6,915 nt of DNA, taken from positions 1 to 6,915 of the IMG/VR virus record IMGVR_UViG_2713896896_000002; one strand, written 5' to 3'. Below the pieces are notes generated by a model. That model was not told the DNA's origin. It did no database searches and saw only the letters and a list, made by a program, of their open reading frames with translations. Origin of the DNA: a virus (Duplodnaviria > Heunggongvirae > Uroviricota > Caudoviricetes). Below, one piece after another: positions 1 through 5,942 of the stretch (position 1 is the first letter of the stretch; every line of letters starts with the position of its first letter). Both the position numbers and the translations under genes were made by a program.

Positions 1-99
1 ACGCCTCGGGCTGGCTACTTAACCCCTGACCACTGCCTGGTAACTCAAAGTATTGCCCTGCGTTCTGTGGGGCGGGGAGGGTTGGTATGAAATAAAGGA

Positions 100-136
100 T
101 ACCCATAGGTATTCAAAAAGTAAATACCCATGGGTA
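100..136. promoter_or_regulatory. OL-like operator pair: two 12-bp palindromes TACCCATAGGTA (100-111) and TACCCATGGGTA (125-136)
   Basis: Second site is a perfect palindrome and the first differs at one position. Centres are 25 bp apart and sit about 45 bp beyond the 3' end of the repressor gene. The same TACC-N4-GGTA motif recurs in the repressor/cro intergenic region. Confidence 0.6.
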
Positions 137-598: not shown

Positions 599-699
599 AG
601 GTAAATAATAGATGCGATTACCGCAAGGTAAACAACCCATAGGTATTGACTTTTGTTTACCTGTGGGTATTCTTGACCGTAGTTTACTAAGGAGTAGCC
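599..699. promoter_or_regulatory. OR-like divergent control region: operator sites TACCGCAAGGTA (619-630, degenerate), AACCCATAGGTA (634-645), TACCTGTGGGTA (658-669); rightward promoter -35 TTGACT (646-651), -10 TATTCT (668-673)
   Basis: Three copies of the TACC-N4-GGTA palindrome lie between the divergent repressor and cro-like genes. A sigma70-like -35/-10 pair with 16-bp spacer overlaps site 658-669, and an AAGGAG Shine-Dalgarno (689-694) precedes the cro ATG at 700. The leftward repressor promoter was not confidently located. Confidence 0.6.
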
Positions 700-981
700 A
701 TGGAAGAATTAAGAATATTTCTCAATTCTCTTTCGTCAGATGAACAGCGTATGTTTGCATGTGAGTGTGGTACTAGCATCGGTTATCTAAGAAAGGCATT
801 GAGTAAAGGTCAAGTGTTAGGGGCATCGTTATGTGTCCTTATTGAGCGAGCCAGTAATGGTGAAGTTACACGTCAGCAACTAAGGCCTTTTGATTGGATG
901 AATATTTGGCCCGAGCTGGAAGATACCAAAACGTTAACACAACCACTTTCCAGGAGCTTGATTCATGATAATCAAGCATGA
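700..981 (+). CDS. Cro-like / YdaS-family HTH regulator (93 aa)
   Basis: First rightward gene after the operators, with a good SD. Sequence features (FACECGTSIGYLRKA..., ERASNGEV, LRPFDW) resemble the YdaS/Cro-like family as I recall it. Its 3' end overlaps the next gene by 17 nt. Confidence 0.7.
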   Translation: MEELRIFLNSLSSDEQRMFACECGTSIGYLRKALSKGQVLGASLCVLIERASNGEVTRQQLRPFDWMNIWPELEDTKTLTQPLSRSLIHDNQA

Positions 982-3129: not shown

Positions 3130-3151
3130 TTTTTACCGGGAGGAAATTTTA

Positions 3152-3913
3152 ATGGAGACTGTTTTTGACGCACTGAAAGCGATGGGAAAGGCCACATCCA
3201 TAGAACTTGCTGCGCGACTTGATATCAGTCGTGAAGAGGTACTGAATGAGCTGTGGGAACTGAAAAAATCTGGTTTCGTTGATAAAACCGCGTACACCTG
3301 GCGTGTGGCTGGTAGCAATGCTCAGCAGGAACAAGCATCCCGGGCTGAATTTCATGAAGAAACTACCACGGCAACAGTAGCGAAAATCTCAGAGTGCGAT
3401 TTAACGGCGACGATTGAACAACGCGGACCACAAACGGCTGATGAGCTGGCTACGCTGTTCGGTATCACATCACGCAAAGTGGCTTCAACGTTGGCTCAGG
3501 CAATCAGCAAAGGTCGCCTGATTCGCGTAAATCAGAACGGTAAATTTCGTTACTGCATGCCGGACGATAATTTACCAGCAGAGCCGAAAGCCGCATTGGT
3601 AACGGAAACAGATGGTAAAGCCTTTCCTCAGCCAGCAGGTGTTGCGTTACCAGCACAGGAAACTGTAACACAGGAAGAAATTAAAACAGAAACTGTGGCG
3701 GACATTGTGCAGTCGCTGCCATCGTTCACCGAAACGCGGGCGGATGACCTGATTTTACCATCGCTGCATCTGGCAAACCGCGAACTGCGCCGGGCGAAAA
3801 ATCATGTCCAGAAGTGGGAGCGCGTCTGCGCCGCGCTGCGGGAGCTGAATAAACACCGGGATATTGTCCGACAGATTGTCGATTCCTCCAGTCGCGTTGT
3901 GTCGGAAAGGTGA
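3152..3913 (+). CDS. Hypothetical phage protein with two winged-helix-like repeats and a charged, probably coiled-coil C-terminus (253 aa; possibly DUF1627-like)
   Basis: Start placed at ATG 3152 because of SD GGGAGG at 3138-3143; the track ORF from 3101 would overlap dnaC-like. Two similar HTH-like segments ([30 protein letters not shown] and [32 protein letters not shown]). The family name is a tentative recollection. Confidence 0.7.
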
Positions 3914-5610: not shown

Positions 5611-5659
5611 TGCTGCGGGTGCTTGAGGCTATCTGTCTCAGGCATGAACACCAAAAGGC

Positions 5660-5750
5660 AGATAGAGAAAAGCCCCAGTTAACATTACGCGTCTTGCAGG
5701 ACGCTTAACATTAATCTGAGGCTCAATCCATGCTGAACACATGTAGGTTA
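5660..5750 (-). ncRNA. Expected position of a Sok-like antisense RNA overlapping the hok leader / mok-like start (boundaries not resolved)
   Basis: Inferred from the hok-family architecture. Candidate minus-strand promoter: -35 TTGCCT (complement of 5768-5773), -10 TAACCT (complement of 5745-5750). I could not identify a clean terminator, so the extent is approximate. Confidence 0.3.
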
Positions 5751-5786
5751 GCCTCTTACGTGCCGAAAGGCAAGGAGAAGCAGGCT

Positions 5787-5942
5787 ATGAAGCAGCAAAA
5801 GGCGATGTTAGTCGCCCTGATCGTCATCTGTTTAACCGTCATTGTTACGGCACTGGTAACGAGGAAAGACCTCTGCGAGGTACGAATCCGAACCGGTCAG
5901 ACGGAGGTCGCTGTCTTCACAGCTTACGAACCTGAGGAGTAA
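5787..5942 (+). CDS. hokD: Hok/Gef-family type I toxin (51 aa), closest in my recollection to HokD (RelF)
   Basis: MKQQKAMLVALIVICLTVIVTALVTRKDLCEVRIRTGQTEVAVFTAYEPEE carries the Hok signature (TM helix then RKDLCEVRIRTGQTEVAVFTAYE). SD AAGGAGAAG at 5772-5780. An in-frame upstream ATG at 5730 (track ORF 5730-5942) may play a mok-like coupling role. Confidence 0.85.
   Translation: MKQQKAMLVALIVICLTVIVTALVTRKDLCEVRIRTGQTEVAVFTAYEPEE

Follow-up and report, generated by a model that had tools for sequence, protein, structure and literature searches.

The window, by which we mean the whole 6,915-nucleotide stretch of viral DNA analysed here, covers the part of a lambdoid prophage that encodes its immunity and replication functions. 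A leftward repressor gene is followed on the opposite strand by a cro-like gene, ydaT, an O-like replication gene and a DnaC-like gene, the open reading frames from the repressor through to the DnaC-like protein all being intact. Prophages of about 95% identity to the window occur in numerous E. coli genomes, and at least 80% of its positions 1–1400, which carry the repressor, cro-like and ydaT genes, are matched in 814 of 5,426 complete E. coli genomes; the ECOR29 relative, a nearly complete 49-kb prophage located beside yccA, is 95.8% identical to the window over the same positions. The features of the immunity region other than its operators and promoters are:

598 to 179, minus strand: repressor gene, 139 aa, from the open reading frame list (phrog_5736, "transcriptional regulator", E = 1e-69)
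700 to 981, plus strand: cro-like gene, probably of the YdaS type, 93 aa (phrog_35, E = 1e-22; 73% identical to the Cro of phage mEp043)
965 to 1390, plus strand: ydaT, a cII analogue, 141 aa (PF06254, 38.9 bits against a cut-off of 21; phrog_163, CII-like)
958 to 975, palindromic: candidate site for YdaT, the CII analogue, TTGATTCATGATAATCAA, exact, at the junction of the cro-like gene with ydaT

The cro-like protein scores 25.8 bits against the YdaS_toxin family (PF15943), for which the cut-off is 30. The candidate YdaT site matches the consensus of the footprinted high-affinity OM site of the CP-933P YdaT protein, TTGATT-N6-AATCAA (PMC9986795), and its exact occurrence at 958–975 suggests that YdaT and its site are common to prophages with different types of repressor and operator. 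Further into the window, at 5617–5942, there is a hok/sok type I toxin-antitoxin locus, with an Rfam sok match of 118.9 bits at 5617–5792 and a Hok/Gef-family peptide (MKQQKAML...) encoded inside the open reading frame at 5730–5942.

The repressor, labelled "hypothetical protein" in RefSeq, consists of a helix-turn-helix (HTH) DNA-binding domain (residues 1–72), a disordered linker and a C-terminal helical tail. Since a Pfam search gave no match, not even with the isolated domain (first 73 residues) and a limit of E ≤ 10, and a PDB sequence search gave nothing significant, the DNA-binding domain can not be named from these libraries. The AF2 model (mean pLDDT 86) places the HTH at residues 23–30 and 34–40 of a helical N-terminal domain, the linker at approximately 73–91, and beyond it two C-terminal helices, one of them of 33 residues; the solved folds nearest to this model are those of the non-cleavable Salmonella-phage repressor SPC32H Rep, HigA antitoxins and the controller proteins of restriction-modification systems, all of them marginal matches with a best E of 1e-3. 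Against the DicA subfamily model (NCBIfam NF007257) the protein scores 24.3 bits, compared with a cut-off of 101, and only residues 84–136 align, weakly. Peptidase_S24 was not found in the repressor by the Pfam search, the C-terminus being short and helical, so that induction through RecA-stimulated autocleavage is not expected; by analogy, an antirepressor might conceivably serve as the route of induction. The late region of the ECOR29 prophage (L126, 31186–31773, outside the window) encodes an ORF6N-domain protein, and as ORF6N domains occur in phage antirepressors, this protein is a candidate inducer for a repressor unable to cleave itself. In two E. coli relatives (P0013 and P0019) the N-terminus of the repressor is swapped for an alternative frame (MNLDDNNSSKF...), which matches an out-of-frame open reading frame of the window at 328–588; these appear, from their sequences, to be frameshifted and decayed copies of the repressor carried by some strains.

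On both sides of the repressor gene lie copies of a 12-bp palindrome, TACC-N4-GGTA, which together with the promoters predicted around them form the following arrangement, the site names being those of the lambda operators to which they are analogous:

96 to 124, minus strand: putative PL, with TTTACT at 124–119, a 17-bp spacer and TATCCT at 101–96; inferred start at about 89
100 to 111, palindromic: OL1 analogue TACCCATAGGTA, exact, over the spacer and -10 of PL, centred at about -16.5
125 to 136, palindromic: OL2 analogue TACCCATGGGTA, exact, directly upstream of the PL -35, centred at about -41.5
605 to 632, minus strand: predicted PRM, with TTTACC at 632–627, a 16-bp spacer and TATTAT at 610–605, from the consensus scan
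619 to 630, palindromic: OR3 analogue TACCGCAAGGTA, exact, over the PRM -35 and spacer
634 to 645, palindromic: OR2 analogue AACCCATAGGTA, one mismatch, adjoining the PR -35
646 to 673, plus strand: predicted PR, with TTGACT at 646–651, a 16-bp spacer and TATTCT at 668–673, 9 of 12 positions in the consensus scan
658 to 669, palindromic: OR1 analogue TACCTGTGGGTA, exact, over the PR spacer and the start of the -10

An earlier reading made from the sequence only had reported the palindrome twice at 100–136 and three times at 619–669. The count of five sites stands, with the correction that the middle right-hand copy is inexact, carrying one mismatch in the half that faces the repressor gene. 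The same 13-nt stretch, ACCCATAGGTATT, is found at 101–113 and, within OR2, at 635–647. The sites are spaced by 24 bp (OR1–OR2), 15 bp (OR2–OR3) and 25 bp (OL1–OL2), and the left and right sets are separated by 509–534 bp, the figure varying with the sites chosen for the measurement. A further right-hand candidate at 592–603, TGTCCATAGGTA, lying across the repressor ATG, was rejected: it has two mismatches and no counterpart in distant relatives, and as sites with two mismatches are common (30 found against 18 expected), it is not significant by itself.

The exact sites are far too numerous to be a product of chance. The window holds four exact matches to TACCNNNNGGTA where 0.04 are expected, and not one of 200 shuffled sequences gave four; when one mismatch is allowed, the scan of all 6,915 bases adds only the site at 634–645 and a single unrelated one at 3134. 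A search of the rest of the prophage and a comparison with non-regulatory DNA, both of which the sequence-only reading had named as checks, came out in favour of operators: in the 49-kb ECOR29 element the only exact sites are the four of the immunity region, and among 80 closely related viral contigs (444 kb) 298 of 301 exact sites occupy immunity-region positions, with three located elsewhere. One-mismatch sites outside the immunity region of the ECOR29 locus number 17, against 11.4 expected for the whole locus, which is modestly above chance.

The hexamers of the predicted promoters keep a constant register to the sites. The earlier observation that one site of the right-hand set overlaps the spacer and -10 of the rightward promoter holds for 658–669 and the hexamers given above, the centre of this site being at about -16.5 from the inferred PR start; OR2 lies at about -41.5 from the inferred starts of both PR and PRM. 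The position of PR is conserved among relatives, and it would serve the cro-like gene and ydaT. The -10 of PRM ends six bases ahead of the repressor ATG, which places the inferred start at the A of the ATG (position 598), and the repressor mRNA therefore appears, from this spacing, to be leaderless. Among 40 related loci, 23 have a TANNNT hexamer 5–7 nt upstream of the repressor ATG and 37 are missing a Shine-Dalgarno core there; leaderless repressor mRNAs have been published for lambda cI, PaaR2 and RacR (PMC8630535; PMC9638921). The PL hexamers are weak, matching 8 of 12 positions and thus falling under the threshold of the consensus scan, and they were read in register with the PL of mEp043 (TAGACA/17/TATATT, upstream of N) and with the family alignment; in this register the left sites hold the same -41.5 and -16.5 positions at PL that their right-hand counterparts hold at PR. 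The site positions agree with lambda logic at all three predicted promoters.

Two further observations concern the left side. Just downstream of the inferred PL start, at 66–85, lies a G-rich tract, TGTGGGGCGGGGAGGGTTGG, which is C-rich on the strand transcribed from PL and is largely conserved among close relatives. A rightward pair of hexamers (TTCAAA at 112–117, a 17-bp spacer and TAAAAT at 135–140) was considered as the main promoter of this region and set aside, the orientation seen throughout the family being the opposite one; it would enter the repressor gene at its 3' end, and we judge it to be a probable by-product of the palindromes and the AT-rich spacer between them, an antisense transcript being the less likely alternative.

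The same arrangement was found far beyond E. coli. Scanning species-representative genomes for the DNA-binding domain yielded 41 loci spanning Enterobacterales, Neisseria, Burkholderiales and Xanthomonadales (with Yersinia, Edwardsiella, Klebsiella, Pantoea, Aeromonas, Neisseria, Paraburkholderia, Massilia, Xanthomonas, Stenotrophomonas and others among the genera), and the combined comparison set comprised 44 loci and 266 kb. This set contains 128 exact sites, compared with 3.7 expected from base composition; 66 of them fall in the 90 bp ahead of the repressor start codon and 50 in downstream pairs, and of the other 12, ten belong to such pairs as well, with a mismatch in the second site. Relative to the repressor start codon, the right-hand sites of most loci, whether in E. 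coli or in Neisseria, Paraburkholderia or Xanthomonas, are found at about -73, -48 and -33, with an exact or near-exact OR1 equivalent at -71 to -75 in 38 of the 44, an OR3 equivalent at -32 or -33 in most, and an OR2 equivalent whose repressor-proximal half is imperfect in 34 of 35. The GGTA|TTGA junction by which the PR -35 adjoins OR2 is conserved in 34–35 of 35 loci, and a GGTA|TTGA(C) junction likewise sets the PL -35 beside the first left site; in the family consensus the -10 elements of PR and PL both start with the final TA of a site, and the operator itself takes the form T-TACC-YRYR-GGTA-A. A left pair, with sites 25–26 bp apart and a TTGACA-like hexamer straight after the first of them, is present in 36 of the 44 loci, and in all 36 the left promoter is oriented away from the repressor gene. 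Paired sites always lie beyond the repressor-side genes in these related loci, and this, together with the inheritance of the motif with the DNA-binding domain at fixed distances from the ATG in distant bacteria, supports the proposal in the sequence-only reading that two sets, resembling OR and OL, flank the repressor gene.

What travels with the operators is the DNA-binding domain of the repressor. Its first 72 or so residues recur at 40–85% identity in many CI-like repressors identified by protein searches, joined to C-termini that include several kinds of S24 peptidase or short helical tails; at least three of these C-termini are unrelated to each other, and the motif is kept with all of them. 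The recognition helix SYVSRML and the loop KRIAD or KRIGE persist in nearly every locus that bears the motif, even where overall identity has dropped to 43%. Two Advenella loci (L121 and L125), in which the helix reads ASISHML or ATISHLL, have no TACC-N4-GGTA and carry other palindromes instead, and this coincidence of recognition-helix changes with loss of the motif is one of the grounds for reading the sites as operators of the repressor. In the same two loci, 60–30 bp upstream of the repressor ATG, there are inverted repeats with an ACCG(C/T)/(G/A)CGGT core and a longer spacer (for example CATACCGC-N8-GCGGTATG in L121), which may represent a respaced variant of the operator. In four Klebsiella loci (L088, L091, L092 and L093) the middle right-hand site and the YdaS-type Cro are both missing, with the -73 and -33 sites and the left set remaining. 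Relative to its cI start codon, the functional phage mEp043 has TACC-N4-GGTA sites at -72, -47 and -32, and a pair 25 bp apart precedes N. CharmingMan has the same layout and is alone among the loci in having a perfect dyad at the OR2 position; its cI gene additionally carries an exact copy of the site, TACCCGAAGGTA, at 3443–3454 of L003, 451 bp from the start of that gene. The CI of phage Tritos shares the C-terminal tail of the window's repressor, with a different N-terminus, and its locus has no such motif.

Variation at the population level was followed in 80 viral contigs with a 100% identical DNA-binding domain, 79 of which have complete flanks. In all 79 the spacings of 24, 15 and 25 bp are invariant, and the distance from OR2 to OL2 is 508–511 bp, being 509 bp in 69 loci and in the window. 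Apart from OR3, where one half-site has changed from GGTA to AGTA in 20 of the 79, the sites vary only in their central four bases and only by transitions that keep the Y-R-Y-R pattern. In these relatives (L005–L084) polymorphism within the region is highest at the central four bases, and could reflect neutral drift under an indirect-readout constraint, a tuning of affinity or exchange between sites.

The left pair may have a second role at the level of RNA. Read in the direction of the repressor transcript, the two sites pair with each other to give a terminator-like feature:

90 to 136, minus strand: hairpin formed by the paired OL sites (136 to 100) followed by UCCUUUAUUU (99 to 90), from a terminator-like match and RNA folding

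The hairpin has a 16-bp stem followed by the U-rich tract UCCUUUAUUU. A 116-nt RNA containing it folds at -26.8 kcal/mol (z = -5.95), and the hairpin alone, at -22.3 kcal/mol, is stronger than that of any other locus with an OL pair (36 in all). The terminator scan found no other terminator between the repressor stop codon and this hairpin; in 25 of 35 relatives there is a terminator-like match within 300 bp upstream of OL, about 20 of these being clear GC-rich terminators. Since the repressor gene and PL point in the same direction, transcripts from PRM must stop before the left operon, and as nothing terminator-like lies ahead of the hairpin on their path, the left pair may double as the terminator of the repressor transcript, serving as operator at the DNA level and as putative intrinsic terminator at the RNA level. 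The hairpin is located upstream of the inferred PL start, so that transcripts from PL would not contain it, and the same 37 bp would stop only those from PRM; repressor bound at OL might in addition act as a roadblock to transcription from PRM.

Taken together, the five TACC-N4-GGTA dyads are very likely the operators of a lambda-type immunity switch bound by the 139-aa repressor. The region has the divergent repressor and cro-like genes, short intergenic region and back-to-back predicted promoters of such a switch, three related dyads overlapping the intergenic promoters, and a second set over the predicted leftward early promoter beyond the repressor gene. In the mechanism we propose, repressor dimers would contact the sites through the N-terminal HTH domain. 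They would occupy OR1 and, 24 bp away, the intrinsically weak OR2 jointly and cooperatively, thereby blocking PR, and repressor on OR2, at about -42 of PRM, would stimulate PRM, lambda CI being an activator from the same position. OR3, lying over the PRM -35, would shut off repressor synthesis at high repressor levels, and occupancy of OL1 and OL2 would block PL, which is expected to serve the early-left operon on the kil and exonuclease side. Very probably the YdaS-type Cro recognises these sites as well, its preference among them being predicted as the reverse of the repressor's. Binding, filling order, activation and cooperativity are predicted by analogy with lambda and CP-933P.

The two sets had also been described as only about 500 bp apart and looping between them as unusually short in range. 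As a comparison within the family this is correct: OL lies at +462 from the repressor ATG here and at +583 to +2870 in the other loci with an OL pair, making this the shortest of the 36 separations, which is explained by the small repressor gene and by there being nothing between that gene and OL. As a statement about DNA looping it does not hold, since about 500 bp is a comfortable and ordinary distance for repressor-mediated loops, such as those of lac, ara and deo and those between the flanking sites of phage 186 CI. The tolerance of 508–511 bp among close relatives argues against a strict requirement for helical phase, and a loop between OL and OR held by repressor oligomers is best regarded as a candidate, suggested by analogy.

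Other explanations of the sites were weighed against this reading, two of which concern the left pair. Given that both the scan and the fold return the hairpin at 136 to 100 followed by a U-rich tract, with no other terminator after the repressor stop codon, the pair might be solely the terminator of the repressor gene, its likeness to the right-hand sites being incidental or the remnant of a duplication. That would leave unexplained why 36 of 44 loci have a pair with a TTGACA-like -35 between its sites and a -10 over the second one, why most loci with an OL pair carry a separate GC-rich terminator upstream of it, and why 101–113 is identical to 635–647 in OR2; a terminator-only role is accordingly very improbable, and the dual role of operator and terminator is more likely. 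Equally improbable is the idea that the left set marks not PL but the rightward promoter at 112–140, giving rise to RNA antisense to the repressor gene. The hexamers of that promoter are the sole pair near 100–140 to exceed the scan threshold (9 of 12), yet the TTGACA and -10 elements of the family are oriented away from the repressor gene, and towards N in mEp043, and in an AT-rich region with palindromic sites hexamer matches on the reverse strand are to be expected.

The remaining two concern the reader of the sites and whether they are still in use. A Cro homologue is present in 35 of the 43 loci related by their DNA-binding domain, so that in most of the sample Cro and repressor are inseparable by comparison, and the sites could in principle be read by the YdaS-type Cro or by another factor rather than by the 139-aa repressor. 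We regard this as highly unlikely, given that the four Klebsiella loci lacking a Cro homologue keep their -73 and -33 sites and their left set and that loss of the motif follows changes in the repressor recognition helix; moreover, in lambda and in CP-933P (PMC8630535) the two proteins bind the same region, which makes both of them, and not one alone, the expected readers of the sites. The frameshifted repressor genes of some E. coli relatives (P0013 and P0019) and the weak PL hexamers of the window would fit sites that are non-functional relics of a decaying cryptic prophage. Against such decay, with which we credit the locus only at very long odds, stand the intact repressor, cro-like, ydaT, O-like and DnaC-like reading frames, the invariance of sites and spacings in the 79 close relatives (central bases and the OR3 variant aside), and the nearly complete appearance of the ECOR29 relative. 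Operators of a lambda-type switch, read by the repressor, thus remain the preferred interpretation.

More tentatively, and with a probability that we put well short of even, the locus may belong to an undescribed CI domain, absent from Pfam, that has its own operator code, T-TACC-YRYR-GGTA-A, and is inherited as a cassette across Beta- and Gammaproteobacteria while its C-terminal sensor or oligomerisation domain is swapped. Such a cassette would comprise the domain, a three-site OR with a built-in weak OR2, a leaderless mRNA, Cro and an OL pair, the last doubling in this window as terminator or roadblock. The term mEp043-type immunity cassette is a definition made in this analysis and not one taken from the literature; its features, namely the MDKYE...SYVSRML...KRIAD domain, the -73/-48/-33 sites, the OL pair and a Cro probably of the YdaS type, are all present here. 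A search of the open-access literature found no operator study for the motif, the DNA-binding domain or mEp043, and this type of repressor and operator seems to be undescribed, though conserved in many proteobacteria. The analysis provides a concrete operator code and a promoter map, both predicted, for a very common type of E. coli prophage immunity. As the same domain and operators occur with cleavable (S24) or non-cleavable C-termini and with OL–OR distances of 0.5–2.9 kb, the family amounts to a natural series on induction mode and loop length in a CI/Cro switch.

Among known systems, the likeness to the OR/OL, CI and Cro of lambda lies in the divergent repressor and cro genes, the three dyads over PR and PRM with the middle one at about -42 from PRM, the promoter-proximal operators about 24 bp apart, the leaderless repressor mRNA and the further operator set that accompanies a leftward promoter beyond the repressor gene. 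The operators differ, with a 12-bp core, TACC-YRYR-GGTA, here and 17-bp operators in lambda, as does the left set, which has only two clear sites here; the repressor is without S24 and its DNA-binding domain is unrelated in sequence. Distances differ as well, OR2 and OR3 being 23 bp apart in lambda and 15 bp here, and OL and OR about 2.4 kb apart in lambda and about 0.5 kb here.

Small HTH repressors such as SPC32H Rep (PDB 5d50/5d4z) and the C-proteins, for example C.Esp1396I, have the folds nearest to that of the repressor, and SPC32H Rep is inactivated by an antirepressor and not by cleavage. These fold matches have E values of 1e-3 or above and come with no detectable sequence homology, so that they offer a lead and not membership. 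The operators of C-proteins are neighbouring dyads separated by about 15 bp, of which one serves activation and the other repression, and the 15-bp spacing of OR2 and OR3 here resembles this arrangement.

CP-933P, with PaaR2, YdaS and YdaT, resembles the window in having a small repressor without S24 and, probably, a Cro of the YdaS type (PMC8630535, PMC9986795), a YdaT with the identical TTGATT-N6-AATCAA site, a leaderless repressor mRNA and both OR and OL sets, but paaR2 is co-transcribed with the paaA2-parE2 toxin-antitoxin genes, whereas the repressor gene here stands alone. The Rac prophage, with RacR, YdaS and YdaT, shares the gene order, three intergenic inverted repeats and leaderless repressor transcripts (PMC9638921), but the architecture of RacR is unlike that of the window's repressor. 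For the PaaR2 half-site, GTTTAGTAA, the window contains one single-mismatch half-site, which is at chance level, and no repeat set, and for the RacR operators, (T/A)TAGGC-N3-GCCTA(T/A), no match was found in the window at up to two mismatches. With both motifs absent, the immunity encoded here is neither that of Rac nor that of CP-933P, despite the ydaS-type and ydaT genes common to all three.

Phage mEp043, the immunity region of which is known here from its sequence record, resembles the window in its cI DNA-binding domain (65% identical), its Cro (73%), sites of the same type at the same offsets and an OL pair upstream of N. It differs in that its CI, of 228 aa, carries an S24 peptidase domain, that OL is preceded by a canonical terminator distinct from it, and that OL and OR are about 1.17 kb apart. 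Between the prophage of the window and phage mEp043, cross-immunity is predicted.
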